A stretch of DNA of 64,000 bases, taken from Octopus vulgaris (Eukaryota). The position numbers were made by a program, and so were the translations under genes. The notes below the pieces were generated by a model. The model searched no databases and was not told the DNA's origin. It saw only the letters and a program-made list of their open reading frames with translations. This document shows positions 1,352-58,700 of this stretch, in pieces (the first letter of the stretch is position 1; every line of letters starts with the position of its first letter). Where the stretch lies: assembly GCA_951406725.2 (NCBI GenBank), contig OX597816.1:66154001-66218000 (forward strand), written 5' to 3'.

Positions 1352-1352
<1 letters not shown>

Positions 1353-1691
1353 TCGCTTTTGGATTTGGTTTGCAAGATTCTTTATATGAGTTCGTGTGTT
1401 GAAGCATATTCTGTTGTGTCTGGGGAGAGTCATTTTCTTTTTGTGCCTTATAATGTAACACACTCACCGGTAAAATTTCCACTTATTTCTCTTTTATTTT
1501 TATTTTCCTAAAAATTTCGTTGTGTCTCGCAACCTTTTCAGTAGTTTTGACAATTGAAAAACTATTGAAAAGGTTGTAAGATGCAACAAAAATTTTAGGA
1601 AAATAAAAATTTTAAAAAAAGTGGAAATTTTACCTGTGAGTGTGTTACATAATAAGGCACAAAAAGAAAATGACTCTCCCCAGACACAACA

Positions 1692-1692
<1 letters not shown>
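1352..1692. mobile_element. Palindromic short element (family C) between (TA)n runs
   Basis: Arms 1411-1548 and 1557-1692 are reverse complements; duplicated ORF starts at 1482(-) and 1621(+). Confidence 0.8.
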
Positions 1693-1729
<37 letters not shown>

Positions 1730-10500: not shown

Positions 10501-10684
10501 AGACATTTGTAGAATCAAGTTTGCAGACAAGAGATAGAAGAGGAAAAACAAGGAAATTACAACCAACTCTGACACATCTTCCTGTGCAGTCTCTGCAGTT
10601 ATGCTTGCCTCTCCTGAAATAAATTCATCAAGCATCAGCAAGCCTGTAACAAACATGGATATCCTACCTCTGTAAATCTTTCCT

Positions 10685-15495: not shown

Positions 15496-15873
15496 CAATT
15501 CTATATTTAAGAGATGAGGAATTATGTACATTTTTTATATTTGACGGATATTTGTCCTCATTTTGTTTGTTGTTAACACATTTCAGCTGATATACCCTCC
15601 AGCCTTCTTTAGGTGTCTTGGGAAATTTTGAACCCGAGTTCTCATTTCCTAAGGTATTTTTCGATGTTATTATTATTGTTGTTGTTCACGTCACTGCTTG
15701 GAATCGAACTTGGAATCTTGAGGTCAGTAGCCCATGCTCTTAACCACTATGCCATGGCCTATGGGCATATGGTGTAGTGGTTAAGAGTGTAGGGCTACTA
15801 ACCCCAAGATTCCGAGTTCGATTCCAAGCAGTGATGTGAACAATAACAACAATAATAACATCGAAAAATGCCT
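15496..15873. mobile_element. Second palindromic copy of the tRNA-head/pLTR unit (right arm truncated)
   Basis: Same sequence family as 25637-26129; centre ~15760. Confidence 0.85.
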
Positions 15874-16054
15874 CTGATGGAGAGAACATGCTGAGGCCCT
15901 TGTCCTATAGTAGACTGAACATGGGCAATCCAAACATAAATGTGTGCGCGTTTGTGTGAATATATATATATACACACATACACACACACAGTGGTCAGTT
16001 GTATTATATAACATGTTACATATGCATATATACATATACACATACAAACCAGAA

Positions 16055-18123: not shown

Positions 18124-18582
18124 TCAATGACGCTTGGTCGACCAATTATTTAAATCTTCAGTACTGAGAATCTCTTGCACTACTTTTTGCACATCATTGT
18201 TGTGTTTATCCAACAAGGTCTGGTTAAGCTCTCGATTAGCAAATCCCATCTCAATCAGTTTGGTCATAGGTGACTGAGGTTCACGCTGAAAGTGAGGTTT
18301 TGGCCATTGCTTCTGTCCATTGTATTCAGTGGCTTCTCGGCTTTTACTTGAATCTGTTTGGTCAGAGTGTTTTGAACAATTACCAATTAGACAAGTGACA
18401 CAGTCTGTCTCATCAACACCAGTACCATTTCTGTTGCTGTTCACGTTAGTAGCATGCTTCTCACAACCAACAACACTACAAACAGGACAGTACTGTTCTT
18501 TGCCATCGTGCTTTCTGGTAGACGGAGACCAGGCAGAATTGGTTGCCATATTAGAGTGTCCTTGTTGAATTACACCATCAAC
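18124..18582 (-). CDS. NBR1: NBR1 terminal coding exon with UBA domain
   Basis: ctctgcag|GTT..., stop TGA at 18124-18126; MTKLIEMGFANRELNQTLLDKHNNDVQKVVQEIL. Confidence 0.95.
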   Translation of the reverse strand, partial: VDGVIQQGHSNMATNSAWSPSTRKHDGKEQYCPVCSVVGCEKHATNVNSNRNGTGVDETDCVTCLIGNCSKHSDQTDSSKSREATEYNGQKQWPKPHFQREPQSPMTKLIEMGFANRELNQTLLDKHNNDVQKVVQEILSTEDLNNWSTKRH

Positions 18583-21500
18583 CTGCAGAGAAATAACAAA
18601 AATTAATAGCAAGATGTTTTGGGGTTTGTTTTTTTTTTTGCCACATTTTATTTCTGACATTTCACTTATTTCCATTATTTAGAATGGACAGATAGGTATC
18701 CTCATCTTCATCATTGTTTAACGTCCGCTTTCCATGCTAGCATGGGTTGGACAATTTGACTGAGGACTGGCAAACCAGATGGCTGCACCAGGCTCCAATC
18801 TTGATCTGGCAGAGTTTCTATAGCTGGATGCCCTTCCTAATGCCAACCACTCCGAGAGTGTAGTGGGTTCTTTTACGTGCCACCAGCACAAGGGCCAGTC
18901 AGGCAGTACTGGCAACAGCCACGCTCAAATGGTGTTTTTTACGTGTCACCTGCACAGGAGCCAGTCCAGCGGAACTAGCAATGACCTCGCCCGAATGTTT
19001 TTTTACGTGCCACCAGCACAAGTGCCAGTAAGGCGTAGCTTATAATTTTAAACAAATGAAAGGTATGAAAAATTCTTGATTCTGTAATTTGATTATTTGA
19101 CTATTAGTACATAAAGTATACAAGCGGCCCTCAAAAAACTTTCTGCAATTTAAAGTGAGCCACAATGTAATTCGAGTTGGCCAGGCCTACTCTCAACACT
19201 ACTAAAGCCTATATCCAGTCCATGAGCCCTATATTTGACAACTTTAAACAATCACTACACCATGCACTATATATTTGAAAAGCAGCTTTTCTCTCAAACA
19301 TATATTTTAAGAGATATGACTATATTTCAGATTTTAATATTTCATGAAGAATTTTCTTAATTAGTTCTTCATTTTTCTCTGAAACAGCAAATTTCCTAGT
19401 TTGTTAATATTTTCAAGACATTGGAATACAAATATTCAAATGATTATTGCCTAGAATAACAATATAACAATCATTTCTTCCAAAACATAAGTAGGTCTTG
19501 AAATGATGAAGGACCTACAATATTTTCTTTCTTCAATTTTTCTTTGAAAGGAGTGATAAAGAAATATGAAACATCTCTGATAACACCGAAATATAATGGT
19601 GGTTTCATACACACGAGAGATTGTATGTCATTATTTTGTATCCATTTTTCTATTGCTTCACTTAGGGATGCGTATATATATTTATGTAAATTGAAGGAAA
19701 GAAGAAACAGTGATTATGTTGAATAGTGGAGACCTTTAAATGCATCGGCAAATATTTCTCTAGTGCAATGCTCTGCAACCAATATGCCGTGGTGAACTGG
19801 TGGGCCACACTATAACCTGAATATAATTGTTTCCCCCTATACTTTTAGATATATTTTTAGTTCAGGTCTGCTGCCAAATTTTAAAATGTATATAAGTCTA
19901 CCACAAATGCTCTAGTGCAACAAATATGCCTATTTTTTTTCTGTTGTTGTGTGTGAGATAGTAAAGGACTATGCCAACATGGAAAAATGGACATAAAATG
20001 TGATTATAAATCCATGTATATATTTGTTTACATATGATCAATGTACATGATAATTGTTTCATCGTTTATATAGATAGATATGTCATGCATGATGAGTGTG
20101 TGTGAGTGATATAAAATAGATTTTGTAGTTTTAATAAGTTTTCTAGTTGTTTGTTAAAATACAGTATATTCCACACACATGTAGCTTTAACTCAAATCTT
20201 TAGGCAGAATCAGCATAACAATGAGTGGCAAGGCTGACCATTTAAACCAGATTCCACACAGTTTTAGCCAGCCCATTTCATTCAAGATTTAGTTTGACCC
20301 AGAGTTATAGTAACTTAAGAGGCAGTTCATAACTGCGAAAGTGAATTTCTTTATCACTTCATCATAATTGCACCCATATGTGTGATGTGTGTATATCTGA
20401 ATATTTATGTGTATGGATATGAGTGTCTGCACATACATACATGTATGTGTGTGTATATATATATATGTGTGTGTATATATATATATATATATACATACAC
20501 ACACACACACATAATGATGCATATGTTTATACATAAGAACTTGATCATTAAACTTTCTATTTTTGATGAAGAATTTAAAACGAGTTGAATAAAGAATAAT
20601 ACTTACAGGCTTTGCTTGGAGAGAATAAAATGCATCTTTAGCAGTAGAATATGCATGTACTACTTTTGATGCGACGTGTACTGCCATTGTGGTTAGTGGG
20701 TTGGGAAGAAAAATTGGGCTGCAATAATAGAGAGAATGAAACAACTTGCAAGATGTTGAATAACTCAAAAAAAAAAATAATAATAATAATCTTTTCTCCT
20801 ATAGGCACAAGGCCTGAAATTTTTCAGGGAAGGTGCTAGTCATCAACCCCAGTATTCAACTAGTACTTAATTTATTGACCCTGAAAGGCAAAGTTGACCT
20901 CGGCAGAATTTAAAGACAGACAAAATGCTACTAAGCAAAATGACATCTCATTGCCTTAATAATAATAATAAATGTAAATCAGTAGAATAAGAGAAAACAA
21001 AGTTTGGTCTGATATGGTCACAGCTGTACGGTTGAAACCAATTAACATACTAAAAATACAGTCCTTTGTGGATTTGTAGACAATGAGAAAGAGAAAATAG
21101 AATTTGTAGTATGATGTTCTAGATTTATTCCCCACAAATTCTTTCAACTTAGGCACAAGTTGGTGGGTTAGCAAATTACATCAACTCCAGTGCTCAATTG
21201 GTACATTATTTTATTGACCCTGAAAGGACAAAAGGCAAAGTTGTCCTCAGTGGCATTTGAACTCATGGATCTTCATAATGATTTCTAATTTAGGAACAAG
21301 ACCAACATATAATACAGTTCTATATTTAAGAGATGAAGAATTATGTACATTATTTACATTTCACAAGGATGGTATTCCATTAAGTCCTATAGTGAGCTGG
21401 AGAGGTTCATTCATGTAAGCCACTGAGCTGCTTCCTTGTGGATATAATCACTCCATTAGCAGGAAAGTCAACATCATATGTGAAGTATTCCACCCACTTC

Positions 21501-23953: not shown

Positions 23954-24002
<49 letters not shown>

Positions 24003-29214: not shown

Positions 29215-29251
<37 letters not shown>

Positions 29252-32200: not shown

Positions 32201-32824
32201 TACAAAGCATGCAGTAGATGTGGAAGTTTCCTCCACTGAAGTACTTCTTACAGAACTCTTGTGAATATCAAGTTTTTTCAAATAACCCAGTGGATTATTC
32301 GGCACTCAATAAAACAGAATTCTAGGTGTTAAAATATCTGAGAAGTGTTGGAACTTACCAGGTGAATGTTCAGTGTTGTTATTGCTAACTATGGTGTTAT
32401 GGTTATTGTCCACTTGTCCAAGCTCTGTATCCAAGTGAGGTTCACTTGACCCAGCACCTTCCGATGTTCTTGGCTGCAAGGGTTTCATTGGATCGAAACA
32501 GTCTGGTAGTGGTACGATGTAGAAGTCGCTGTCACTTTGACTCAATTCATCATCACTCAGGGTATCAAGTGATTCTACATCAGCTTCCAAATCTAAAGAA
32601 TTTTTTTTCATAAAAAAATTTCATTTTACATTTTTATTGTTTATATCTTTAAAACTAAAAGAAAAAAAGCCCCATTAGAGTAAAAAGAAAAGATATAGAA
32701 ATAAACTTTTATATTTCAGAGTTATACTTTGTTTGCAAGTGACCCGATTTGAGATTGTGTGGTGACAGCAACATCATGATGCAGTCATGACAACCATCTA
32801 CAACAAAGACACACATACACACGT

Positions 32825-32859
<35 letters not shown>

Positions 32860-34560: not shown

Positions 34561-34603
<43 letters not shown>

Positions 34604-37600: not shown

Positions 37601-38964
37601 CACAAAAGATAGAGGACAAAATTACATTTATACTAGTTCACAGCCTTTTAATAAAATATAAAGACAAATTTCAAAAACAAAAATAAGTTGCTTTTTTTTC
37701 TATGAATAGTATAAAGCGTAAAGACCCCTTTCGGTCATGAATGACCATGGGATTGCAGCTAGAAAGTTCCCTCCAAGGCACAAGTCCAGGCAAGGTTGTT
37801 TATGGAAGACCAGCAGTCACCCATGCATACCAGCCTTGCCTCTCCAGGCCACTGATATTATCTGAGCGAAAGGCAAAAGTCGATACAGCTTGGCACCAGT
37901 GATGTAACAACTCATTTCTGCAGCTGAGTGAATTGGAGTAATGTGAAATAAAGTGTCTTGCTCAAGAACGCAACACACAGCCCAGTCTGGGAATCGAACT
38001 CACTACCTCATGATTGTGAGCCTGACACTCTAACCAGAGTTATGCACCTTCATATGAATAGCTTTTGATTTTTCTATGAATAGTATATAAAATACAAAAA
38101 GAAAAAATCTGATCCATTTAAAAATTAAGACCTGAAATCAGATTTGATATGTAAGCAACATTTATGAAAATAAAACATTTTGCTGTTGTACACATTTCCT
38201 AATTTGTCAGATAATGGACTGAAACAATGATGACGATATCTGAATATTGACGTAAGAACATAAATAGCAGGTAGAGATTAGCTTGGTGCTTGCATCAAAC
38301 AAATACAAAACTGCAACTCATTCATTCAAGACACTGACTAAAAGAAAAATTTAAAAGTAGCCTTTGATAAGTATTAACTGTTGAAGTGCTACAATATTGA
38401 GATCAGAGTGGAAAATATTGTAGTTCAATATGGCTATTGTTGGTAGTGGGATCTTGACAGGTGTTTGTAACCATGGCCAGACATGTTTTCATGGAAGAAT
38501 AGGAATAAACATCACTTGTACGACAGTGATGCTCATTTAACAAGTATCATGTGAAGTCAAAACAAAGGTACACACACACACACACACACACACCTGTGTA
38601 TATACATCATCATCATTTAATGTCCGCTTTCCATGCTAGCATGGGTTGGACGATTTGTCTGAGGACTGGCAAACCAGATGGCTGCACCAGACTACAATCT
38701 GATCTGGCAGAGTTTCTACAGCTGGATGCCCTTCCTAATGCCAACCACTCCGAGAGCGTAGTGGGTGCTTTTACGTGCCACTGGCACGAGGGCCAGTCTA
38801 TCGGTATTGGCAACAGCCATGCTCGAAATGGTGTTTTTTACATGCCACCTGCACAGGAGTCAGTCCATCGGCACTGGCAACAACCTTGCTCGAATGCTTT
38901 GTTCACGTGCCACCGGGACAAGTGCCAGTAAGGCGACGCTGGTAACGATCACTCTCAAATGGAG

Positions 38965-39011
<47 letters not shown>

Positions 39012-42000
39012 TACACACACACACACAGGCATTTTTTTTTTGTAGTTTTCATCTACCAAATCAGCTCACACGGTTTTGGTTAGCCTAGAGGTGACAGCAG
39101 AAGACACTCACCCAAGATGCTGCATAGTAGGACTGAACCAAGAACCATATGGTGGGGAAGCAAGCTTTTCAACCACAGTCACACACAAAATTATTTAATA
39201 AAAATACATATGAACTTCCTAACCTCTTTCAGGAGTGTGTAGTTACCCAGTGCAGATTTGTCTGCAGGCTTTGGTACTACTTCAATGCTGCACCAGACAC
39301 GAGGTCCAAACAAAACTGATGAATGACACAATTTCCAATAGCTTAGGTATTTACCTGGAACAAAGAAAAAACAAAGAAAAGTTATAGAAACCTAACAACC
39401 TTACTTCTTAAAAGTGGTTTCTTTTTACAGAACCATTTCAAATGAAAGTGAAAACAAATCCACTTCCAGGTCAAAAGTTCAAACTGCAATTCATTACTTC
39501 TAAATTATAAGCATACTAGCACTATGACCCGGCATTCAATTGGCATATCAAGTTTTGAGCATTTTGATTGGGTTTTGGATAGAAAATTCACAAAAAAGTC
39601 ACTTCTATTGATTTTTTAATGGCTTTGCGGGGTGACTGGGGAAATGTAAAGATGTGCACGACCACCCTTGGACAGTTTTGAATGACCATAGAAAGTGCGA
39701 GCCCTCTAACTGAAAAATTGTGGATTTGTATAAAGGACACACACACACACACACACACAGACATTTTGCCGTTTATATAAATAGAGATAAATAACACTTA
39801 TAAACACAATGCAAAACACACTACACACACACACTCATAATTCATGTATATGTTTCAGTTTAAATGCTGTGACTATGCACACATTTCTTTTAACACACTA
39901 TTGCCTACATCAAAGACTATATCCAGATTCTACCTATCCTGCAAAAACAGACAGGAGATATGAACCAAAACTTAACAACAAAAAAGCTATCAAGAATATA
40001 TTACAAAATTCTGAAAATTAAAAAAAAACATCTATAATAAAATAAAGTGTGTACTGACCGGGTTGTTCTGGGGCACTTAAACATACAGTAACATCACCTT
40101 TTTCGCCTGGTTGCAAGAAAGGGACAGTTACCTCAGTGGCAAGAGGGCAGATATTACCAGACTTTAATCGCATCTAATTAAATGCAAAAGAGAAAAAACA
40201 TACTTATAATACTTGATATAAAAAAAAAGCACTTATTTTACTAGACCAAAAACAATGAAAATTCCCAATTTATAAAAACATGTAATGCAGTCATATTAAG
40301 GTGCTGTACACAAACTACATATTCACAAGTTCAAATCTTGCAGCTATCATTGAATTATGTTTATAAACAAGACTACTCACTGCTTACTCTTGGTAAGACA
40401 CCATAGACTCTACAGTCTACTTCATAGCACAGTGGTTATCAATACATTCATCCAGCTATAAAAACAGTTGCTCAAAACAAATAAACCAACCTAGTCATGT
40501 AAGCATGGAAATATGAATGTAAAACAGCTAACAAAAAATATATCTATTCAACATATTCATCTATTCTTTGTATTAAATATATTTACTCAAGTATAGTGCA
40601 ATCTTGAACATAATGTTTTAGTCTGTTATAAGTTCCATGTTGTGTAAATAACTGAGATTACAACACTCACTTCTGAATGGGATGCCGGTCTGCCACAAGG
40701 TTAACTTCCCACCTGTTTCTGGAATTCATATACAGCTAAGTGAACTGGAACATGAAGTGTTTTGCTCAAGAGCACAATATACACTCTCTGATTGGGGAAT
40801 CAAAGCGATGATCTTACAATCATAAGTGCAACACCCTAACTACTAAGCCATATGTCTTCCATATTTATAGAGTGTTACACTAAAAATAATTTTAAATATG
40901 TTATTTTAAGTCTCTTACACTGTTTAATTATAGCTTCTCAAACCATTTTTTTTGCAATACACATCTTTTTCACTTTTAGCAATATAACTGGCTACCATGC
41001 CGGTGGCACGTAAAAAGCACCATTCGAGCGTGATCGTTACCAGCATCGCCTTACTGGCACTTGCGCTAGTGGCACGTGAAAAAAACATTCAAGAAAGGTC
41101 GTTGCCAGTGCCGCTGGATTGGCTCCTGTGCAGGTGGCACATAAAAAACACCATTTGAGCGTAGCCACTGCCAGTACCGATAGACTGGCCCTCATACCAA
41201 GTGGCACGCAAAAGCACCCACTACACTCTCGGAGTGGTTGGCATTAGGAAGGGCATCCAGCTGTAGAAACTCTGCCAGAAAAGGATTGGAGCCTGGTGCA
41301 GCCATCTGGTTCACCAGTCCTCAGTCAAATTGTCCAACCCATGCTAGCATGGAAAGCAGACATTAAACGATGATGATGATGATGATGATTTTGGAGGCTG
41401 GGAATATGGCTTTTGAGAATATTTTTTCATATTTTAATTGTACTGACAGTTGCCAAAGCTACCTCAAATACTAGGTAAAAAATTTCATTGTAGTTTTCAG
41501 AACCTTGGCAATTAATAAAATAACAGCATTAGAGAAGCATTTAATCAGCTCTGTTGCCAATTGCACATAACAAGCCAACAAATATGTGGTAATGCCTTCT
41601 ACTCTACATAACCTAAAGAATGTTAATGACCAATTAAAAACAATATTAGTGGAAATATAAGTAAACTACTATGTAATAAAATTCCTCAGAAAAACCTGCA
41701 ATCAATAATCATTAATAAAAAAATCTGCCAAAGAGACTTCTAAATATATCTCATATTACCCAGAAAAAAAGAACCCAACTTTTTTAAAACTATTCTGAGA
41801 AGGATAAGAAAAACGAAATAGTCAGCCAACTGTGATGTGTAAAATCTTTCAATTTCAAGAAAGTGTTTTATCAGTAATATATGAATAAAAGAACACTAAC
41901 AACTGTTTTTTCAGTCCAAGCAAATTTTCCAGTGTTCTTCATCCTCCAGGTTTTATACAGCCTAGCAAGAGGCTGGACTTTTGTTCCATCAGGAATAGTA

Positions 42001-44694
42001 ACATCACACACAAAGGCAGCACTATCAAAAAGAGAAGAAAAGAAAAATGAAAGTAAAAATTGACAATATATTTGAGCAGTCTTTCTTCAAAATATTCTGC
42101 AGCTAATATACCTAACAAAAATTACTTTTCCATTAAGTTACTTCACAAACCAAACATGAAGTCTGAGAAAAAGAAAATGTAAATGATTTCTTGTATAATT
42201 TGTTAAAAAAATAAAACCTAAGCTTATAACTTCAAAGAAACAAAGCAACACAAGCACCTCTACAGTTGCTCAACCTACCACAAATAGCAGCCAAATCTGG
42301 CTTCAATGCTTAAGTATGCAACTGTGTAGAATACTTACCCTAATGAATTCCTTAATTCCATTCTTTCCTTTTTCATGGGACAACTCTGTCTATAAGCTCG
42401 CTTCAATTTCTCATCATACTTCATCTGCAATTCCATTAGCTTTTCTTCTTTCTTCTTCTTGTTAAGCATCTTGGCCATTTTGACTTGACATCTGGTCAAA
42501 CACAAATAATACAACTCATAGTACTTTAGATAAGCAGCATCCTTCCATAGATACTACTGGCCACTAATAACAACAATATATAACTTTCAGGGAGTTTCAA
42601 ATAGCCAGCCAAGTAAATTAGTGGCTGGCCTTTTAGCATGAGTCCAGTGAGTCTGGGATTAATCTCTGTTGATAGATATTACTCAAACAAAAAGTAGATT
42701 TCTATTGCACAACCTGCTTGCTAAGCAGAGCTAGTTAACATGAAGGTTTTTTAAAGGTTGATTTTTCTCAAGTAAAAATATCTTCCATACAGCAAAATTG
42801 AAACAACATGCCTTCACCCTCACATTGCATTTCACATAACTAAACACTGGAGTCTTGAACAAGACAGAATTATAAAATATTTAAGGATGACCTGAAGTAT
42901 TTAAGTATGGGCCTGTATGTTGTCCTTGAACAGCATTTTGAGATAATTCAAAACAACTGAAGTCAAGGTAAGCATTTCAGAAATTTAAAAAAAAAAACCA
43001 ACATACAAATAACAAAAAAATGTACATTAGGTGCAGGTGTGGCAAGAAGTTTACTCCCCCACAGTTCAATGACTAAAACAAGTACAAAATAAATGATAAA
43101 AAAATATCTATTGATTTACAATAGCTAAAACTTAGTTCTGATTTCATGGTGTTAAACAGGATGACAACATACTTCAGGTAACATTCCCAGACAATCAAGT
43201 ACTTATTTCCAACAGATGAGTGTTACATTTAAAATAAAACTACTTAAAAGCAAAACAGCTTCAGTAAATTTGACAATAACTCATTCTACTGATAGGTAGA
43301 TAAGTTGGCCATTTGGCCATTTTTTTCTCAATATTAATCCTTAACTAAAGAGAGAAAAGTATGCAGCTGAAAGTATGTGGCTGAACATGTGGCTCAAGAG
43401 AAAAAGAAAATCACTTGAAATAATTCATTGAGTAATATTGCAGTGTGGAAGGTGTTTATAAGCCACTTAAGAAACACACTAGATCTGTCAGATTCACTTC
43501 AACATTTAAATTTAATTTGTGAAAATATTTTAGTCGCTTTAAGACCATGACCTGTTCACTGACAAAATTTTGTGCTGCACGAAATTTGTCAGTAAACAGG
43601 TCGCGGTCTCAAAGCGATGAAAATTAAATTTAAATGTTGAAGTGAATCTAATGGATTTTGTGTGTTTCTTAAATGGCTTATAAACACCTTCCACGCAGCA
43701 ACTGTTTTCGTTCCAGCACACAATCTCAAATCAGGACAGTTGCTATGCAAGTACATCTCCGTAATTGAGTAATATGTTCTGAATAAATAAGTAACTAAAT
43801 AAAATTGGTAACAATGTATTTGATAATAAACTTGATACTTTACTTTGACAACTTGGCATGCTGTCGCATATCATCTGGAATGATTTCATACTCTCCACTG
43901 GCTGGCTCGCAAAAATTAATAGCAGCAGAATAATTGTGGCCCTCAGGTTTATAAATTATGCTACGTAACAACGGTTGCAATTCTGTATCAATTTGACAAG
44001 GACGCCGCAACTTTAAGAATACATGAGTAGAGTCATGAACACTCGTCAGATTTTCACACTGTTCACACAAATCATAATCTGGACAATTGCTGCAACAGAA
44101 AACAAAATAATCAAATTTCGTGTGTGCATGAATGTGAGTGTGTAAGAAGGAAGGAATCTAAACATTTTTACTTATTATATAAAAAGCAGACGTGCTGTAC
44201 TAAAGTTTATGTCAATGTACATACAGCAGATAATCTCGGTAAAGCTAGTATTTGTTGATGTGTATCAAGCAACATACACCTACATATAAATCTCTTATAT
44301 TGTGTACACACGTTTTTACAATTTTGTATATGTATACTAGCACTATGACCTGGCAGCGCTGGCTCATAGTGTTAGTGCATGCATATACAGCTGCGTGCGT
44401 GTGCACATACACGCGAGTACTGTCCAAATCTCCAACCAATCTCATACCGCTAGCTGGCATTCAATTGGCGTATCAAGTTTCGGGCATTTTGATTGGGTTT
44501 TGGATAGAAAATTCACAAAAAAGTCACTTCTATTGATTTTTTTAATGGCTTTGTGGGGTGACTGGGGAAATGTAAAGATATGCACAACTACCCTTGGATG
44601 GTTTTGAATGACCATAGAAAGTGCGAGCCCTCTAACTGAAAAATTGTGGATTTGTATAAAGGATACACACACACACAGAGGCAGACATTTCACC

Positions 44695-44785
<91 letters not shown>

Positions 44786-47700
44786 AAAAACTAATCACTG
44801 TTGGATATAAGTTTTGTCAATGATGTATAAATTGTTCTTTGCATCATAAATGGCCATTTATAAATTCCTTTAAGAGTCATAGAGGAGATAATGTGGGAAA
44901 ATTTAGGTTTTGTAACCAAGGAACATATAAGCCAAATGTGACTCCATAATTCATATCTCAGATTATCTATAAGACAGTAATGTTAAATAAGAACTAATAC
45001 AGGGTAGAAGTGACACTATAGTTATCTTCACATAGCACAACCACACTTGTACTAGTAGCACCTAGTACACTTAACTGGTTGGTGATAGAAAGAGCATCCA
45101 GTTGTACAAAATACACAAAAATAAAACAGGCAAGAAAGAGATAACCAGATGCTACCCATCTAGGAGGGTATTAACTCTAGAAAAGAACTGACGCAAGGAA
45201 GTGAAGACTCTTTAGTTTTTCCATATAGGAATCTCTTCCAAGTACTAGCATCACAATAAAACACATCCAGTCAACAATGGAAGATATACACAACAAAGTT
45301 GGTGTTACTGTGAATGTGCAGACCGTAAAAATCCATCTGATATATGATAGCATGGAAAAAAACAAATGTAAAACAACAATAATAATCATCATCATCGTTT
45401 AACGCCCGCTTTCCATGCTAGCATGGGTTGGACAATTTGACTGAAGGCTGGCGAACCAGATGGCTGCACCAGGCTCCAATCTTGATCTGGCAGAGTTTCT
45501 ACAGCTGGATGCCCTTCCTAACACCAACCCCTCCGAAAGTGTAGTGGATACTTTTACGTGCCACCAGCACGGGGGCCAGTCAGGCGGTACTGGCAATGAC
45601 CTCGCTCGAATCTTTTTACACATTCCACCTGCACAGGTGCCAGTAAGGCGACGCTGGTAACGATCACGCTTAAATGGTGCCCTTTTACGTGCCACCGGCA
45701 CGAAAGCCAGTTAGCCGCTCTGGCAATGATCACACTCAGATGGTGCTCTTAGCACCCTACTAGCACAGGGCACAAGTGCCAGTAAGGCGCTAGTAGTAAT
45801 AATAATAACAACAACAACAATAATAATAATAATACAACAGCAGAAACCAGGATCAACATCCACAAACGCTATATTTCTTATAAGAGAACTTCCAACATAT
45901 TAGAGTGAATAAAAAATCTATGCTAGAAAAAACAGGAAATAATTGTATAAGCACAAGTAGGTATTGCACAAGATTTTGCTGGAGTAGTTGCTACATCACT
46001 TAAGTATTGATCAAATTGATTTCACAATAAGAATTTAAGAATCTGTCTAGAATCTTTGAAAAGCACTTTTCAAATTCAGTTTACAATAGAAATTTCTATG
46101 AACATGAGAGTTTTTACTTTAGAAACTAACTAAAATCCTAATTGCTAAAGGCAAATTTCCAGTGATACTCACCCACATTTGAAACGAACCCCAACAATGG
46201 TCCGCTGGCAATAATCACAAATGATTCCTTCATGCCAGTATAATTCTAAGAAAGGAAAAAAGAGAATATTAATTAGTATTACTTTATAATCATTATATAT
46301 TAAGCTAACAAAGATTGGTGATTGAATCAACTGCATATTAAACAGCTCATAATTCTTGCAGTTTCACATACTATACACAAAGAAAATTACAAAATTTAAA
46401 GCTTGGATGAATTCTATAAATTCTTTGTACTTAAGCAGTTAAAATACCTGGCAATTGTTGTAGAATTGCAGTCTTTTTTTTACAAATTTATTTATTATTT
46501 TTAAATAACAGAAAAGAACAATTTTTGAGGATTTAAGCATTATAGCACCAAAGCATGGACACTTGCACTGCTTTAACAAATTAGGTTTTTTATGTTTTTC
46601 TAGCTAGGTTAGCAAGTTGATTTTCTTTGAAACAAAATTACTTACGATATGGAGAATCAGCAGGTAAAGTCTGGGTGGTACTGGTAGTACTTGAAACAGA
46701 GTCTTGAGTTTTTGTCATTACATCTTGCACAATTTCTGACTTCAATTCCTGCTTCAACTTTAATGAAAGAAAGATTAATAAATAAATAAGATCATTTATA
46801 TTACAGACTGGCACTATGACCCGGCAACACTGGGTCATAGTGCTAGTGCATGCATATACAGCTGCGTGTGTGCGCACATACACGCGAGTACTGTCCAGAT
46901 CTCCGACCAATCTCATACAGCTAGCTGGCATTCAATTGGCGTATCAAGTTTCGGGCATTTTGATTGGGTTTTGGATAGAAAATTCACAAAAAAGTCACTT
47001 CTATTGATTTTTTTAATGGCTTTGCGGGGTGACTGGGGAAATGTAAAGATGTGCACAACCACCCTTGGACGGTTTTGAATGCCTATAGAAAGTGCGAGCC
47101 CTCTAACTGAAAAATTGTGGATTTGTATAAAGGACACACACACAGATAGACATTTTGCTGTTTATATAGAGAGAGATGCCAAACATTAGAAAACAACTTA
47201 AGATTGATTTCTGATTTAAATTTTTTTCATTAGTTATTGAACCAACAATAACATTCAAATTATATTAATATGGATTGTTACATCAAAAAAAAAAACATAT
47301 CAATAGAATATATTGGTGTTGCTAAGAAACTTGCTTCAGGATCATACAGTTTCAAGCTTCATCCCACTGCATGGCACCCTGAGCCAGCAGAAGCCCATCA
47401 TATGTATGTATATATAATTGTGTGTGTGTGTGTGTAGGTACATCTCTCGATGTACATATATCTCTGTGTGTTTCCATATTGACATCATTTGGGTAGTTTG
47501 TTTTTACCAAACAACTAGGCAGTTCAACATGAAAAGACAAGTACCTTATTTAAAAACAAAGGTTGCCATCAGGAAGGGCAACCTACAGTTTATCAGATCC
47601 ACCCACACCATGGAAAATGCAAGCATAAAATAATGAAATTGGCAATACATAATATATACAAATATATTGCTATTTTCAAATAATTTCAATGGTGTACAGA

Positions 47701-48961
47701 GTTAACAATATATAAAAGAATTTCTTTTTCTTTTTTTACAAATGTCAAGTTAATTCCTTAAAGAACATTTTTTATGATTTAAATAGCATAAAATTTGCTT
47801 TTAATTTAACTTTTAAAACTAAAACTGAATAGTCAATCTTTTGAAAGCTTTCTTCCATGAAAAAAAAAATCCAAAGTTAATTTGACAAGTTGGCTTTAAT
47901 AACTAATAAAAAAATTAAGAATCTCACTTGTTTCAATAGCTGAGTCAGAGAATTGAGGGGTATAGTATCAGAATCTTGACTGGAATTTGAAGACAGAGAA
48001 GTTGGTGCCTTCTCTCCAGATTCAGAGTCACACTGAGATGATGATATATTTGGTTTAGGTTCTGCTGTGTCAGTAACTGGTTGAGTTTCAACACATTCTG
48101 GTGCCACATAATCATGAAGAACCGGGCGGCTTATAGACAAATTTTTCAAAGACGGTACAGCCTAAAATTTATCAAACAGAAAGAATATATTAAAACTAAT
48201 TACAATGTATTAACTACTGCAATCAGTTTTGTTCTCTTTTTCTTGATAACTTTTCCAGTATAAAACACATGACATTCAAAATTTTACACACTGCATTCAA
48301 AATTTAAAGTTAGTGAGATTAATGTAAACGATGGTGAACAAAATATCTGTGAGTGAGGCTGGTACTGTAGTATGCTCAGAGAAATCTGGATATGCAACCT
48401 ATATTTAATGCCCAGTTAAAACAGTTTCAATTATTTTGCTAATATCCTAATGAATTACATGCCCATTATACTTCCAATTTCTTAGTATATAAAATACACC
48501 ATAAAGTTGTTAGGCACAGGCATGGCTGTGTGGTTAAGAAGTTCACTTTGCAACCATGAAGTTTCAGGTTCCATCTCACTATGTTGCACCTTGAATAAGT
48601 GTCATCCACTATAGTCCCAGGTTGACAAAAGTCTTCAGCAAATTTGGTATTTGGAAACTGTGAAGAAGTCCATTATATATAAATATATCATCATCATTTA
48701 ACGTCCGCTTTCCATGCTAGCATGGGTTGAACAGTTTGACTGAGGTCTGCAGAGCCATCAGCTGCACCAGGCTCCAATCTGATCTGGCAATGTTTCTACA
48801 GCCGGATGCCCTTCCTAACGCCAACAACTCCAAGAGTGTAGTTGGTGCTTTTTATGTGCCACTGGCATGGGAGCCAGTCAGGTGGGCCTGGCACAACGAT
48901 CACGTTCATGCCACCAACATAACCTGTGCTAGCACGCAAAACGGACGTTAAACGATGATGA

Positions 48962-49008
<47 letters not shown>

Positions 49009-49392
49009 ATTTTATTTGTTAGGGAATAAAAATTCCGGCATAACAGAGGTTCAAATTATTCTCAATGAGGAATTGAAACATATACAGTCTTTATTAACCT
49101 TTTCCATTCCTTACATTTTTTGAGCTATATATCATCATTATCATTGTTTAACGTCTGCTTTCCATGCTAGCATGGGTTGGACGATTTGACTGAGGACTGG
49201 CGAACCAGAAGGCTGCACCAGGCTCCAATCTTGATCTGGCAGAGTTTCTACAGCTGGATGCCCTTCCTAACGCCAACCATTCCGAGACTGTAGTGGGTAC
49301 CTTTACATGCCACCGGCATGTGGGCCAGTCAGGCGGTACTGGCAACGGCCACAAAAAAAATCATGTTTTTTTTTCCTTTTCTTTTATATATG

Positions 49393-49435
<43 letters not shown>

Positions 49436-49692
49436 CTTCTGAAGCATACACTTCATTTTAATGGCTCCACAGAAACTATAGAATACTGAAAAAATACCCA
49501 CCAACTCTGAGAGAATTGCTTCTTATAGTACAAAATGCTGCACACTAATGAAAGTGATTACAGGACTTCTTTTGTCATTCATTAACTGATATTGTGCTCT
49601 GTACTCTTCTGGTACTTTACTCTAAAAGCTGAGTTCTAACAACAGGTTATTAGTATCACTATGTCAAAGACAAATCATAATTATAATTATAA

Positions 49693-49736
<44 letters not shown>

Positions 49737-52700
49737 CATCATCATCATCGTCGTCGTTTAACGTCCGCTTTCCGTGCTAGTACGGGTTGGACAGTTTGAC
49801 CAGGGTCTGGGAAGCTAGGAGGCTGCACCAGGCTCCAGTCTGATCTGGCAGTGTTTCTACAGCTGGATGCCCTTCCTAACGCCAACCACTCCGTGAGTGC
49901 AGTGGGTGCTTTTTACGTGCCACTGGCACAGGTGCCAGGGGAGGCTGGCAGCGGCCCCAATCGGTTGGTGCTTTTTTATATATATATATATATATAATTA
50001 TTAAAATGTTAAACAATGCTATCAACTGATTAAAAAGAAATATAGATTTTACTAACTTTGGATCTTATAACTGCACCAGTTTCTTCATCTCTTGTTAAGA
50101 CAGTGTTATTCTCACAGTTCATATCTACAATTGCAGGCTGGTTTGTTCTGAAAAATAAGTATATCATTTGTTATCATTTCAATCATTTACCAGCATATAA
50201 ATAAACCAAACTATAACTTTACTGAACAATTTTCAAAAAATAATAATAGCTTTTGATCGTTGGATCTATCTTGTTAGGGTTGTGGTAGAATACACTATTT
50301 GGTAGTAAATATATTATTGATTTTACAGAATTTTCAAATCTTACACACAAATAAGAATATTTTCTTTGTTTTTTTTTCACTCTGACTTCTACTTTGCAGT
50401 TAAATTGTTGGTGTTTTATTTATACTTTAGAGATCCTACTGAATAATATTTCAAAAAGACCTGTTCATCAGAAAACAAAAATTAAATTAATTTTTTCCCC
50501 CTTTATCATGTATATTTGCTTTTGATACAGTTAATAGATAATGCTACAGCAATGAGGCAGGACGATCTTCACAAACTATCAAGTAGCTCACTTCTCTGAT
50601 ATTGATTTTATAATATCATCAGTTTATCAGTTTAACATAAATTTTCCTATGTTGATATTGTCTAGATTTGTATTTTCTTTGGCAAGTTTGCCCAATTCCT
50701 TCTCAAGTGTCAGGTTTTGATAGAATGGGTTGAGTATATTTCATGAAACTCTACATTAGCAAAGCTGCCTTCTCGAGCATTAGAGACTTTCGCATTGTAG
50801 TACTTTGCCTGATTTATTTAACAATAAATGCTTTACTAGCTGGCTGAAGGAGTAAAAGACACTTATTGACAATTAAGAAGGGAGAACACCATAACAAAAA
50901 TAAAGGTGTGAAGGAAAAGTATAATCGCAGATGGAAAAGTAAATAGAGAAGGGAACATGAGAATGGACATTACTGAAAATACCTCTTTCAGCAGGGTCAA
51001 TTACTAGTCAATCTTAAAAACAACTGAAATTATCATACTTGATGACATAAAAGAATATACTAGGTACATAAGTATACTAGACACACCCCAATTTCAGCAG
51101 TACATATTTTTAAAAAAATGGTTTTAAGTGCATTAAAGCTTGTAATGTGTGCTCAATCTTACATATAGGACCCAAGGTAATTTTTCTGAGACATTTAAAA
51201 AACATCTTTTATGCCATCAAATACAAAACTCTTTTACTTGTTTCAGTCATTTGACTGTGGCCATGCTGGAACATCGCCTTTAGTCGAGCAAGTCGACCCC
51301 AGGACTTATTCTATCGGTCTCTTTTTGCCGAACCACTAAGTTACGGGGACATAAACACACCAGCATTGGTTGTCAAGCGATGTTGGGGGGACAAACACAG
51401 ACACACAAATATATAAACACACATACATACATACATACATATATACGATGGGCTTCTTTCAGTTTCTGTCTACCAAATCCACTCACAAGGCTTTGGTCGG
51501 CCCGAGGCTATAGTAGAAGACACTTACTCAAGGTGCCACGCAGTGAGACTGAACGCGGAACCAATGATTGGTAAGCAAGCTACTTACCACACAGCCTATT
51601 CAAATTCAATATCTCTGCCCTGATCAGTAATCATCACTCTGAAAATGTAATCCCTTCTATTTTAAAATGTTAACCTCAGTCTTATGCATTTGCTATTTAA
51701 TTTTCTAAATAAATTCACTTACTGTGTAGAGGAGTCCTTGCCAGCAAAAGGATTGCTGCTAGAGTCTACAAATTCCACTCCATTGACTTCATTGGAATTA
51801 ATCAGTAATTCAAGTTCGTCATTATTTCTCTTGGCCATCTACAGAGATATAAAAAAAAACACATGTAACATGACCAAACATAACTTGCACTTAAACTACA
51901 GCCTTTATATTAGCATTTCCTATTAAATATGAAACTAGATATCAAGTACATGTAAGAAATTATAATATAAAGTACATTACAATTATAGGAAGAGAATGCT
52001 GCTAAATTCTTAGAAGGAAAGGAAGAGCCCATAACCTTTTTCAGGACCTCTGAGACTGGTGGGAAGGAAAAGGAAGTTACTCTCAACCAGTGACCTGGCC
52101 CAATCACTTGCAACAGAGCAGATGACTTTGCCAAAGGCAACCAAGGGCCACGGGGTGGAGTTAAAAGATATTTTCATTACTGCATCAGCTAAACTGGAGA
52201 TGGTAGAATTGGCTGGACATACAAAATATTTATTGTGTTCAGTCATATTCTTTCAGATAGTGTGTTCAAACTCCATCAAGGTTGTGAGTTTTCCCTTTTA
52301 ATCTTTTTGGTGTCAAAGTACCAATCAAGTGGTGGAGATCAGTTATCTTGTTCATTCAAGTTATAACCATGTGCTAATGTTAGAAATGATCATCATCATC
52401 ATCATCACATTATTATTACTATTAAGGCGGTGAGCTGGCAGAATCATTAACACACAAGGCAGAATGCTTAGCAGTGTTTTGTCCGTCCTTCCATTCTAAG
52501 TTCAAATTCCGCCAAGGTCGACTTTGCCTCCCCAAAAATTTCAGGCCTTATGCCTATTGTAGAAAGGATTATTATTATTATTATTATTAAGCAATCCTAA
52601 AAAAAAATTGGTAGAAACAATATTAAATTGATACTATTTAATTAATCAAAACAAAATCAAAATAATTAAAATTAAAATTCATATGTCAATTTACAGATGG

Positions 52701-55700
52701 TAAGTGAAAACTAAATATTGAACAGATTACAAACATTAAACTTGAGTGAAATATTACAAAGGGAAATTTGCTATTTTTACGGTAATTTTAAACTAATTAA
52801 AAGTAATTTTCTATAAGACAAAAAATGTAAAACATACTGTGAAGGCTTCAAAGAGTTCTTCAGGGCTGCTTACTATAATCTGAAATTAGAAAGTTTTATT
52901 TTTTAGATAAACCATTTTTAATATTTCACAACTAAAAACAGAACAAACAGCAAATGCCTTTAAAAGGAAAAATAGCACAGGATATATGACATTTCAAGTA
53001 TCTGAGAGGAAAGGAATGACCTGAAATATTCTAATTGTATTTCTAACACTCTACAGAAAAACACAAACATGCTAATTATATCAGAACTGTTGGAAGAAAC
53101 AAAACAAGGCTAACAACAGAAGAATTAGATAAACACAAATAAATAAATTTTAGATATATATGATATAAATAATTTTAAGTATTGGCTTCCATTCAGTTGT
53201 TTAATCTCATAGCCTAAAAATATTAATTGCGTAAATAAAAAAAATGAAACTTCAAATTACTTTAAAATTTAACCCAATTTTTTTTTAAATTCCAGAATAT
53301 TAAATTCAAATTTTTTGAGTAGAAATACTTCTAGATACACTAAACACCAATCTCATCCTAAGATACATCAATAGTAATCTATTTAGAGGTTATGAGAGGT
53401 AATGGTGTCAATAAGACCCAAAGGTGTCAGGTAATGCTGGGTAAGTACTCTGGACAGACCACAGTTAAGCTCCAGGTTCAGTGATTATGCGAATAAGGAG
53501 TCCAGCGTAGGTCATATATCAGTATGTGTATATATAAAAAAAATTTTTTTTCAGAACGAGATAAAAAACCAAGGCTGTGAAGAATTTAGAACATTTATAA
53601 ATAGGTCTTACAGCTGTTTCCAGGATATTTATTATATCCTTTCATCGGAGATGGTGTGAGAAAATGGTTAAGCAATAGTTAATTTAGATAAGATACGAAA
53701 TAGAGAGTGAAGTAGAAGAATGAAAATAGATGTGAGATATGCAGAGATATTGCATTTGTAATTCCATTATTTAGGCAGAATGGTATATACATATAAGATT
53801 CCAATACCAGGTATTGGAATCTCATTTATCTCATTCTGAAAAAAAAAAAATTTTTTTATATAATAATCTATTTATTAATCTATATATTCTTAAAGCAGGC
53901 CACTATCTTCTTTTTTTGCACAAAAATGATGAATCTACAGATCAACCAATTATCTTGAAATAGAAAGGGAAATGAACAAAATGTTTTTATACTTTTTTCA
54001 TTTGCCATTGGTGTTGCTCTTAAAAGTATGATGGTTGTAAGATTAAAGTGCAGGATTACTGACCACATAATTGTACTCTAAGCAAGGCCTCTAAATCTGC
54101 TTCTTCCTACTTAAGTGGTTAGGTAAAATAGATATCCAACTGTTAAGTTAAATCTACCAGAGACTCGCTCTCCTCCACCATATATCAGTTGTCTTTTATC
54201 AATAGCTGCTCATATATAGTTTACTCTCTCCTTTTCTCTCATCTCTCAAATCAGGAATGTCCTGTCAGACCACATCATCATTCCAACTCACTGCTCCGCT
54301 GGATATGTAATGTCAGTGTGCATACTTGACAGAGTGTAAGTACCTTCAGAGAAAAGTTGGACCTAAGAAGTATCAGATGTGGTGTACAAGAGAGACGACT
54401 GTGGTAGTATGGTCATATGGCAGGATGAGGATAGCTGTGTGAAAAAGTGCCACACCCTAGCACTTGAGGGAACTTGTGGAAGAGATAGACCCAGGAAGAC
54501 CTGGGATGAGGTGGTGAAGCATGACCTTCGAACATTAGGCGTCACCAAGGCAATGACTAGTGACTGAGACCTTTGGAAATATGCTGTACTTGAGAAAACC
54601 CAGCAAGCCAAGTGAGACCTTAACCCATGGCCTATGCCAGAGGTGTAACCAGCCCACTTGTGCGTACCTTTCCCTCATTGGACACTAAACTCTGCTTGCA
54701 AAGACCGGTTGAGGCAAGTGAAATCGAAATCAAATTCAATGACTGGCATCCATGCTAGTCGAACACTAAGAGCACCATCTGTGCGTGATCATTGCCAAAA
54801 CAGCTGACTGGCTTCAGTGCCGGTGGCATGTAAAAAGACCATTCGAGCATGATCGTTACCAGCATTGCCTTACTAGCACTTGTGCCAGTGGAACGTGAAA
54901 AAATATTCAAGCAACGTCATTGCCAGTGCCGCTGGACTAGCTCCTGTGCAAGTGGCATGCAAAAAACACCATTTGAGCGTGGCCGTTGCCAGTACCATCT
55001 GACTGGCCCTCTTGCTGGTGGCATGTAAAAGCACCCACTACACTCTCGGAGTGGTTGGCGTTAGGAAGGGCTTCCAACTGTAGAAACTCTGCCAGATCAG
55101 ATTGATGTCTGGTGCAACCATCAGGTTCGCCAGTCCTCAGTCAAATCATCCAACCCATGCCAGCATGAAAAGCGGACGTTAAATGATGATGATGATGATT
55201 CTATTGTCTTTGGTATATCAGAAACTGTAGTTATGCTTTTCATACACTCATCCTACATTGTGTAACTGACAGTAGTGGGTGCTTTTTACATGCCACTGGT
55301 ACAGCATCAGTCATGACTACTATCTCACTTGGCTTGACAGGTCTTCTCAAGCACGGTATGTTGCCAAAGGTCTTGGTCACTTGTCACAGCCTTCAGGAGG
55401 CCCAAAGTTCAAAGGGTGCTTTTTACATACCAGTTACACAACACTGACAGCAGCCACAACTATAGTGCTATTTCTACATAGAGACACACTCCTTAACCCT
55501 TTTATTACTGTATTTATTTTGAGGTGCTCTGTGTTTCTTTCAATTAATTTTAAATATAACGAAGAATTTAATAACTTAATTATCATTAAGCTAGTGTTAG
55601 GAACATAAATTGTGACTAAGGTTTGGTGGAAGACTTTAATTCAGAACTTATAAGACATTCGTACTACAGAACCAGAGGCAGTTTCAGCCAAATATCTTCC

Positions 55701-58700
55701 AATAAGATCATAACTACTTAGTCCACTTCAACAGCACAAGGGAAAAAAAAACCCAATACTATAGATACCAAGAAAATAATTATACATGAAAACAGTTACA
55801 GCATTCAAGATATTATGCATTAAAAACCCATAAACACAGTTAATTTCATTTAAACATTTATCATTTGGTGTCAACTGAACTTGGTAACAGATGCAACTCC
55901 ACTACATCTAGCTTGTGGTGAAGTTGTCGGCTGATATATTGCTTGTTTTTCTATGTAGATCAGTCATTCTGGTTGGGTGCTCATAGTTGATCAGTTATTG
56001 GTATTTGGTTGTCATCATCATCATCATCATCATCGTTTAGCGTCCGTTTTCCATGCTAGCATGGGTTGGACGGTTCTACTGGGGTCTGTGAAGCCAGAAG
56101 GCTTCATCAGGCCCAGTCAAATCTGGCAGTGTTTCTACGGCTGGATGCCCTTCCTAACGCCAACCACTCCGTGAGTGTAGTGGGTGCTTTTTACGTGCCA
56201 CCCGCACTGGTGCCAGACAGAGCTGGCAAACGGCCACGAACGGATGGTGCTTTTTATGTGCCACCGGCACGAGGGCCATGCGAGGCTGGCAACGGACACG
56301 AAACGGGGCGGTGCTGGCAACGGGGCGGTTGTATTTCATGTAATCTCTAGTCTTTCTCTTTTCCTTTAGCATTGCATACAGTGAGTCAGAAGATTAATGA
56401 CCTCAAAGAAGTGAACTTACCAGAGAACGGAGATAATAGGAAGATGCAACAGACATAACAGTACACCTTCTCATGATCACCCAACTCAGATACCCAAAGT
56501 TGACACAGATGCCGAGCATTCACAATTTCTCAAGGCAACCACAAATATATAACATTGTCAATATTGCATCTCAAATGATTCAACTTCCTCTTTAAGACCA
56601 GAAAATATATCAGCTCTGATCAGTTTTAGATCCTCAATAAAGTTCAAAAGTCCGCTTTTAAATATCCAGGAAGGTGCTTATGTTTCACATACACACACAC
56701 CTAATTGTAAATTGCGGTAAAGAAATTATTTTTTAAATCCAGAAGAAATTACTCTTCAACCTGTGCCAACAAGAACCAGCCAAGACCTGGAGTTTGGTAA
56801 ACAGTGCAAAACTCCTCAAGAAACAGCTGTGGGTTTGTAGTAAAGTAGTTTGTTTCACAACCATGTTGATGCTGGTTAAGTCCCAGTGTGAGGCACCTTA
56901 GGCAAGTACCTCCTACTACAGCTTCAGGCTGACCAGTGATTTGTAGGTGGAACTGATAGATGGACACTTGAGAAGCTCATGTAGGTGTTTGTATGCATGC
57001 ATGTGTGTTTGCATGCATGCACATGTGAGACTATTGTTTCTACAAACACTCACTAACACTTCCTGAGCAAAAAAAAAAAAAAACAGGATGTCTTTATTTA
57101 AATAGAAGACTTAGTTTCAGGTTCAGCAGCTTCATTGTTTTCAACATGAGAACTTGTGAAATGAAAATACCTTATTTGAAAATATATAAGGGTTAATGAC
57201 AGGAAGAGCATCTGGCTGGAGAAAATCTACAACAGCATGTTTCATCTAACCCACGCCAACATGGAAAAATAGACATAATGGTATATAAGATTTCGTTCAA
57301 GGGCCAAGAGTTCTGTGTAGCATGAAAAAAAAAGACACAGAACACATGGTAAAGTGGTTGGCATTAGGAAGGGCATCAAACCATAGAAACCATGTCAAAG
57401 CTGACGATGGAGCTCAACACAGCCCTGTGGTCCACCAGATCCTATCAACCTGTCTAACCAATGCCAGCGCAGAAAACAGACCTTAAATGATGGTATTGAT
57501 AATGATTTTTTTTATGTACATTGGTAAAGAATGTTTTAAACATTGGTAAGATGGGGTGAAAACTAAGTCCTTTGACATATTTGTTCTGCACCAAGTTACA
57601 GAGACTTCCTCATCAGAAATGCAGAGAACCAGTGATTGGCCCATTAGAAACTGAACAATGGCACTTGTTTACCAACTGTGATATGAAATAAAATTATCAA
57701 ATGATAAGAAAGAATGAAATACAGCTATTAATACCCATTTGAATCCTGATAAGCTGGCATTAAATAAATTCAACCTGTTGGGTGTCCACAGTCACCTAAT
57801 CTACTGTTTGTTCCTATCTTTCTCTCAGGTAATTTCTAAAGACAACAGATCTTTTATTTGTTTCAGCCAATGGACTGTGGCCATACTGGGGCACTGCTTT
57901 AAAAGGTTTTAGTCAAACAGACCAACACTAGTACTTAATCTTTTACTTAATCTATCAGTCTTTTTAGCCTGACAGCTAACTTACAGAGACACAAACAAGT
58001 CAACACCAGCTATCAAGCAACAATGGAAGTGAAATAAACAAAGACACATGCACATACATATCTTATATATTACATACATATAAGGAGGGGGTGTCTACTT
58101 CTAGCATAATGGATGTCCACTTAGTAGTCATCCCTCTTATATGTATGTAATATAATTTTTCTGAATCTTCAGATTTTTCAATATGCTAGACCACTGGTTT
58201 TAAATTGATATTAATCAAATTAATATTAAATTTTTTACCCTTATTATTTTGAATTATATATATATATATATATATAGGGAGATGTACTCGCATAGCAAGT
58301 AATTTGATCTGAGATCGTGTGCTGAAACGAAAACAATTGCAGCGTGGGAGGTGTTTATAAGCCATTTAAGAAACACACAAAAGCCGTTCGATTCACTCCA
58401 ACATTTAAGTTTAATTTGTCAAAATATTTTCGTCGCTAAAATCCGCGACCTGTTCACTGACAAAGTCCGTGCTGCATCTCAGTGTATATATATATATATT
58501 TAGGTAGTGGGTAGCGATTTTCTTCACTACTTCAGGAAGTGACGACTCTGCCCAACACGAATCCCAGGCTCAGCTGGCTCCAGCTGATAGTAGCTGGTAT
58601 GGGTCCCTATCCAGGGTTACGGAAAGAAGGCAACCTTCAAAGAAATCCGGAGTGGAGCCCCGTAAGTGGTTTAGTTTTCAACTCGACGCTCTTCCGGAAG

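Follow-up and report, generated by a model that had tools for sequence, protein, structure and literature searches.

Minimal type I hammerhead ribozymes have been described in metazoan Penelope-like elements (PLEs), and they offer a close comparison for eight short elements in a 64-kb stretch of Octopus vulgaris DNA (contig OX597816.1, positions 66,154,001 to 66,218,000; hereafter the window). As here, the motifs reported by Cervera and De la Pena (2014; PMC4209133) combine a short helix I, a long helix II and a palindromic helix III with an extra base between positions 9 and 10.1, and many families occur per genome. Minimal hammerheads on opposite strands, ~100-700 bp apart, were ascribed there to truncated PLEs, a U3-A8 core was already published, and minimal hammerheads showed no cleavage as monomers and low cleavage as dimers. 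The accessible passages of that paper contain no octopus data, make no mention of the G3-C8 core found here in family B and leave junction rules unanalysed.

The original prediction took the octopus elements, which form five families (A to E; Table 1), for a community of non-coding, retrozyme-like PLE derivatives. The evidence assembled here comes from the window, from public contigs aligned to it and from related PLE loci of other organisms. With a probability of roughly 0.8, families A-E are PLE ends, or passengers mobilised by PLEs, of the ordinary kind. Family A is the pseudo-long terminal repeat (pLTR) of a coding Penelope element and holds both a hammerhead and the first codons of that element.

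The published plan of PLE insertions, from the Penelope elements of the rotifer Adineta vaga (PMC3846280) and from Craig et al. 2021 (PMC8557442), includes an inverted pLTR and a one-sided tail, as seen here. It also includes target duplications of 8-10 bp, palindromes where head-to-head copies meet, and a pLTR that contains the first codons and the transcription start; some clades insert into microsatellites. The rotifer pLTR carries TATA/initiator-like motifs, whereas that of family A opens with tRNA-type boxes; unlike in A. vaga, solo palindromes dominate here, with tails of 55-60 bp in families B and C. For PLE inversions, Arkhipova et al. favour self-priming on an antisense template (PMC3846280).

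Biochemical data are available for the Anolis element Poseidon_Ac (PAc; PMC11167929, Frangieh et al. 2024), whose protein nicks and extends both DNA strands. Its reverse transcription starts at two internal sites ~110-170 nt into the open reading frame (ORF), both within the first 172 nt, the stretch between them being the tail. The PAc hammerhead needs protein and is dispensable for insertion, and a C3G/G8C double mutant is partly active; the G3-C8 pair is thus engineered in PAc and natural here. As in family A, the PAc hammerhead overlaps the ORF start, and the short and long ends lie at similar distances. The work is in vitro only, and inverted dimers and solo pLTRs are not addressed in the parts of the paper available.

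Two other systems are similar in part. Non-LTR retrozymes (PMC7229834; bioRxiv 10.64898/2026.07.22.740005) are likewise short hammerhead-bearing repeats and have been proposed to derive from PLE pLTRs; as the available text of these papers has it, their defining traits are head-to-tail arrays of 150-450-bp units, hammerheads that are mostly canonical, and abundant circular RNA, whereas family A is coding. The Schistosoma elements that resemble short interspersed elements (SINEs) have a promoter head followed by a hammerhead (PMC6765202), like solo copies of A; family A, unlike these, is tied to a PLE ORF and to PLE short and long ends. In the literature searched, the G3-C8 core appeared in engineered form only, the work of Lunse et al. 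on PLE variants lying outside that search, and the supplements of PMC4209133 and PMC8557442, outside the core-variant comparison, may list more variants. Among the titles and passages retrieved, no description was found of a PLE read by RNA polymerase III (Pol III) or of a SINE carried by a PLE. No paper was found that joins Penelope pLTR palindromes with miniature inverted-repeat transposable elements (MITEs), and none of those retrieved for twin priming and Penelope concerned PLE mechanism, judged by title.

A coding Penelope element carries family A as its pLTR

The link to Penelope that had been proposed for these elements proved right and stronger than claimed, as the partner ORF of family A sits inside the window. 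This ORF matches Pfam RVT_1 (E 1.9e-5, under the curated cut-off), has 85 homologues (best 71-73% identity) and gives a tblastn E value of 4e-145 against the protein P0002. The alignment with its homologues continues through the endonuclease region, including one at 42% with P0049, which carries PF01541; Pfam alone gave no match to the C-terminal piece. The ORF is disrupted by frameshifts, one stop and a deletion close to the C-terminus. Its likeness to other PLE proteins and its predicted domain order place it in an endonuclease-containing (EN+) PLE, apparently of the Penelope/Poseidon clade.

The element A2 starts directly after the stop of this ORF, and the opposite end of the insertion is an inverted family A 3' end with a tail that is absent from A2. 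The A2 hammerhead has a CUGAUGA box and an intact core, and the reading frame opened by the ATG of A2 passes through it. The translation of this frame agrees with the N-terminus of the full-length PLE protein P0038 at 12 of 17 residues (E 0.001 among 85 proteins). The description of these elements as non-coding therefore fails for family A, which is the pLTR of a Penelope ORF and encodes the N-terminus of that ORF. The short end of A lies ~125 nt and the long end ~160 nt past the ATG.

The solo copies of family A share a fixed beginning. All four dimer arms begin at a tRNA-like head, and Pol III A and B boxes are present in 4/4 solo arms (in A3 at 25838 on the minus and 25876 on the plus strand). 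The box pattern, which was tuned on the solo arms themselves, has six matches in the window against 0.015 in shuffles. The likeness to tRNA is weak (Rfam tRNA 22 bits, E 5.1; ARAGORN 0 hits), and the head of the ORF-linked copy, A2, is partial. Sm-alpha, of the Schistosoma SINE-like elements, likewise has a tRNA-type promoter. Position 7 of the hammerhead is A in the three hammerhead-bearing solo arms vs U in the ORF-linked copy. Summed public contig depth reached ~6.0e6 at the A hammerhead, 3e4-4e5 at the ORF, 3.5e3 at E and 57 in a unique bin; these sums are rough ratios rather than copy numbers and are read solely as ends far outnumbering ORFs. A search for the family A pattern among viral contigs gave 0 matches, and no target duplication was detected at A1 or E.

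Hammerhead layout and core integrity

All eight elements were found where they had been predicted, and blastn gave no match between families, in line with the claim that they are unrelated in primary sequence. Inverted dimers were recovered for C, A1, A3, E and B1; A2 and B2, from families described as dimeric, are not dimers. The inverted termini of D are present as 35-bp repeats. The layout predicted for every element (in order, one strand of stem I, the box followed by an extra base, stem II, GAAA, a palindromic stem III, UH and the other strand of stem I) can be read in 12 of 13 arms, the right arm of A1 ending before the ribozyme.

The significance of this layout differs between families. 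A covariance model built solely from 18 hammerheads in PLE loci of other organisms, and expecting a 4-nt stem III, gave 27 hits in the window. The top six were the arms of A (four, E 5e-7 to 0.011) and of C (two, 0.021 and 0.092); the right arm of E was found at E 1.1 and B2 at 2.1. At E<=10 the model had no match for D, either B1 arm or the left arm of E, and an Rfam search of the window found no hammerhead family at the same threshold. B2 was the best match of a descriptor built from published features (score 15; 0/60 local shuffles reach 12). D scored 9 in a looser descriptor, for which shuffles yield 0.42 such hits per window, and E was seen by neither descriptor, its hammerhead reading requiring both arms taken together. 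Measured against chance, the layout stands out clearly in A and B2, is borderline in C and D, and lacks significance in E. Two unnamed places score 9-10 in the looser descriptor, on par with D; the unnamed hits at 19379 and 33641 were dismissed as low-complexity.

The prediction that each insertion puts a ribozyme on both strands was not borne out, as none of the nine hammerhead-bearing arms of the five dimers has an intact core. Only A2 and B2 do. G12 is altered in both A3 arms (G12>A), in the right arm of C (G12>A) and in the left arm of B1; G5 is mutated in the left arm of A1 and the right arm of B1, so that both G3-C8 hammerheads of B1 are damaged. The left arm of C has C3 opposite A8, unpaired, and both boxes of E are altered. 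The arms have diverged to 77-87% identity and carry deletions as well as core mutations, several being of the CpG-decay type. Covariation is seen across the 18 external motifs, which were themselves chosen by descriptor, while within-family sets comprise 1-4 arms each.

PLE loci of other organisms served as a control. The descriptor hit 27 of 79 related loci. Among the 43 testable ORF-bearing loci (those reaching the ORF end with flank, some of them near-duplicates), a hammerhead lies just after the ORF in 20 and an inverted copy upstream in 19. A natural G3-C8 hammerhead occurs in the pLTRs of one ORF-bearing family (L064, L065, L069, L070, L071, L079 and L095), and a U3-A8 core in one of the 79 loci. 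Both L095 and L069 have an inverted copy with a tail, a G3-C8 core and a short 3' end. The order in L095 is inverted pLTR with tail, direct pLTR, ORF and short-ended pLTR, which makes its 5' end, too, a palindrome of head-to-head hammerheads. The DNA of families A-E shares a single 29-bp match with the 79 loci, and relaxed ARAGORN runs on them returned noise. Standard hammerhead searches miss G3-C8 and U3-A8 families.

Families B to E and the origin of the palindromes

Families B-E are likely to be pLTRs or short passengers of other Penelope-like elements. One-sided tails are present in the A3, B1 and C palindromes, and the three B arms start within ~10 nt of one another. B1 is flanked by a target duplication (43427-43438 and 43764-43775) matched in score by 1 in 300 random flank pairs, and both C and B2 sit in a (TA)n microsatellite. 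In B2, stems I and II of the hammerhead are present in the minimum free energy fold (z -2.96). Candidate open frames extend through the B and C tails. A family B 16-mer present at 20 loci was put down to chance, as none extends past 24 bp, and the family B pattern had 0 matches among metagenome contigs.

Family C could be followed in public data, with 10,000-27,000 contigs aligned in each of four runs. In all four, contigs end at 1348-1350 and at 1406-1408 with mixed flanks (agreement 0.42-0.48). The one-sided tails, these two fixed 3' ends and the 12-bp duplication of B1 are marks of PLEs and not of MITEs. The majority letters restore an AAUU palindromic stem III (1514, ~99% in 4/4 runs) and stem II (1523, 1528). 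Position 3 of the left arm is mixed, with U in 22-76% of depth depending on the run, and the UUGAAAA stretch of the right arm is ~5x deeper, with no listed change; no G8 was detected at 15%. The main form of C is probably U3-A8, though the picture is not clean. Of the 161 joints detected, 14 of the 15 shown fall at 1557-1562 with the other arm cut at varied places, a pattern biased by a reference that included just 36 nt of the right arm.

Two pairings were observed at the starts of these families. The first bases of B2 (58476-58486) are predicted to pair with its short-end and tail regions (58324-58345), and the letters preceding the fixed start of C (joints at 1557) complement a 7-mer near its short end (1418-1424). 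A closing helix or junction microhomology are possible explanations.

The palindromes probably formed by the following route, the priming detail of which stands at about even odds. The starting point would be a pLTR such as that of family A, with its promoter-like head, hammerhead and first codons of the ORF. As published for PAc, both target strands would be nicked and extended, with reverse transcription starting at two internal sites. If a start motif also lay near the 5' end of the RNA, priming there would copy the pLTR only, and copying would halt at the RNA 5' end, leaving solo pLTRs with a fixed start. Should both strands prime, one per site, the two cDNAs could join head to head, giving each pair one short and one long end. 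The copies have since decayed, as their mutated cores show, and with their arms predicted to lock in a hairpin they would not cleave. Fixed starts together with short and long ends provide a direct test of two-strand priming vs antisense self-priming.

A bolder version of this account is less likely than not. It would have the palindromes record two-strand priming at the 5' pLTR-ORF junction with the apex at the RNA start, make the solo pLTR of family A a self-renewing, Pol III-driven, Penelope-mobilised ribozyme SINE, and have the natural G3-C8 core of B kept functional. If true, a Pol III-read PLE or a PLE-carried SINE would be unusual.

Several points weigh against a PLE origin of all five families and against this route. 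The ORF beside A2 is the only PLE ORF in the window, so none is present there for B-E, and peptide queries in a single reading frame gave 0 matches to a coding partner for B and no candidates for C. The B and C tails exceed the published 30-40 bp. The unpaired C3.A8 form is common in C, and its joint pattern carries the bias described above. The duplications flanking A3 and the ORF element are weak, with 7% of random pairs scoring equally. D has symmetric ends with no one-sided tail seen, and E, which is not significant, lacks both a tail and a duplication. For PLEs the head-to-head joining step is hypothetical, and Arkhipova et al. prefer antisense self-priming.

The strongest alternative, which we nevertheless consider unlikely, is that B, C, D, E and the solo A copies are retrozyme- or SINE-like non-coding families with their own promoters, using PLE proteins in trans. 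As no partner ORF for B-E turned up in the window or in the single-frame peptide searches with B and C, these could still be non-coding families. The fixed 5' starts, the Pol III boxes that look intact in all solo A arms, the excess of pLTR over ORF depth and the distinct base at position 7 also fit such families, and non-autonomous PLE derivatives are already published (in available sections of PMC8557442 and bioRxiv 10.64898/2026.07.22.740005). However, family A physically belongs to a coding element whose N-terminus it encodes, and the hammerheads, with a stem I of 3-7 bp, represent the minimal PLE type rather than the canonical retrozyme type. Priming at the 5' junction of a coding RNA would account for the fixed start just as well. 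The predicted community of non-coding, retrozyme-like derivatives also lacks support on other grounds: no family forms a head-to-tail repeat in the window, and head-to-head pairs are a published PLE by-product.

A second alternative, which we rate as very improbable, would class some of the elements, chiefly D and E, as MITEs derived from foldback DNA transposons or as palindromes that arose by chance, with an incidental hammerhead layout. The inverted ends of D are equal and lie in a TA context, neither D nor E reaches significance in the external covariance model, and the two unnamed places score as high as D. The ends of A, B and C are nonetheless unequal; equal terminal inverted repeats with a fixed short duplication, the pattern that would have favoured MITEs, are absent from these three families, and the B1 duplication is 12 bp. 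The hammerhead of D combines a CCGAUGA box and a perfect 7-bp stem II with an 8-nt palindromic stem III and a 10.1-11.1 mismatch; its stems and its junction palindrome, which is as in rotifer PLEs (in the accessible part of PMC3846280), speak against an incidental match. D is the sole element still compatible with a MITE origin. The true MITE-like neighbour of E looks quite different. This element (23367-23682), 40 bp from E, is flanked by TTAA at either side, has short inverted ends that begin with CCC, and is repeated in public contigs; we take it to be piggyBac-like. The expectation that families A-E would look like MITEs was fair, and in annotation these abundant octopus repeats belong under PLE ends instead.

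That the palindromes are retained as regulatory RNA, as ADAR or Dicer substrates or as intronic ribozymes on NBR1 pre-mRNA, is hardly credible: six of the eight elements are intronic, hairpins are predicted on the transcribed strand for A3 (206 pairs, perfect run 61 bp) and B1 (128 pairs, run 35 bp), and B2 is intact and in sense orientation, but the drift, deletions and core mutations of the arms show no sign of conservation, minimal hammerheads do not cleave as monomers and cleave little as dimers (available text of PMC4209133), the PAc hammerhead requires protein (likewise PMC11167929), and editing would be a side effect common to any inverted repeat. A functional ribozyme reading of these copies is contradicted by the single sense hammerhead that each palindrome gives a transcript, the predicted pairing of the arms and the mutated cores; such pairing would work against the dimer cleavage needed by minimal hammerheads. 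The A3 and B1 hairpins are plausible editing substrates.

The PLE reading leaves these elements as ordinary genomic debris, decayed copies of a known architecture rather than a new ribozyme system. New features are the families A-E themselves, their fixed starts, the head of Pol III type in family A and, within the literature searched, the natural G3-C8 core.

The NBR1 locus and its other repeats

The window is AT-rich animal DNA that contains most of the NBR1 gene on the minus strand. Insertion into host pre-mRNA, predicted for all elements, holds for six of eight: NBR1 introns contain A2 with its ORF, E, A3, B1, D and B2, while A1 and C lie past the stop codon. B1 is ~80 bp from the ZZ-domain exon. 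The only intact motif in sense orientation to NBR1 is that of B2, and it has no intact partner in the gene.

Table 1. Host gene, Penelope insertion and hammerhead-bearing elements in the window
Feature	Position	Strand	Evidence and remarks
NBR1 host gene	18127..59635	-	17 matched stretches at 69-100% each; best named match P0086, Octopus sinensis NBR1
Inverted family A 3' end of the long class, with tail, at one end of the Penelope insertion	21313..21360	-	contig loose ends at 21313, 21360
ORF of probable Penelope/Poseidon type, 5'-truncated, decayed (reverse transcriptase, then GIY-YIG-type endonuclease)	21359..22690	+	Pfam, homologues, tblastn
A2, 3' pLTR of the Penelope ORF element	22690..22903	+	partial tRNA-like head, ATG 22779, hammerhead 22808-22853, short end 22903
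A1, head-to-head solo pLTR pair	15496..15890	.	left arm complete with tail, hammerhead 15572-15617 (-)
A3, head-to-head solo pLTR pair	25637..26125	.	short end left, tail right; two hammerheads
B1, head-to-head pair	43439..43763	.	12-bp target duplication; left end short, right end with ~60-bp tail
B2, one tailed arm located in (TA)n	58278..58486	-	G3-C8 hammerhead 58415-58464, sense to NBR1 pre-mRNA
C, head-to-head pair in (TA)n	1350..1697	.	A8-type hammerheads 1506-1546 (-, C3) and 1560-1600 (+, U3); ~55-bp tail left only
D, single hammerhead 53606-53651	53531..53865	-	35-bp inverted end, 33-bp junction palindrome 53793-53825
E, 100-bp palindrome, two decayed hammerhead-like arms	23721..23822	.	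weakest case of the five families

Other repeats are frequent in the window. A SINE-like family of 200-230 bp has at least 12 copies (11491-11697, 18704, 32034, 35973, 38602, 45385, 48682, 49134, 49743, 56021, 58931 and 60733), and the opposed SINE-like pairs 54525/55415 and 55027/56191 could form intronic double-stranded RNA. Two further pairs of Pol III A and B boxes, at 30389 (-) and 4545 (-), lie outside family A and probably mark other tRNA-derived SINE heads. A fragment at 13260-13592 (-) resembles the reverse transcriptase of a long interspersed element, with no Pfam support. At 3112-3593 lies an old 480-bp palindrome, possibly an ancient foldback, whose arms are 64% identical and in which no hammerhead was detected, and at 4736-5101 a decayed element with ~70-bp inverted arms that are 75% complementary. 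An NBR1 exon at 29424-30038 (-) contains a long His/Gln-rich low-complexity tract. Finally, a young repeat occurs at 44336-44681, 46807-47152 and 39612-39755, with copies 93-95% identical.

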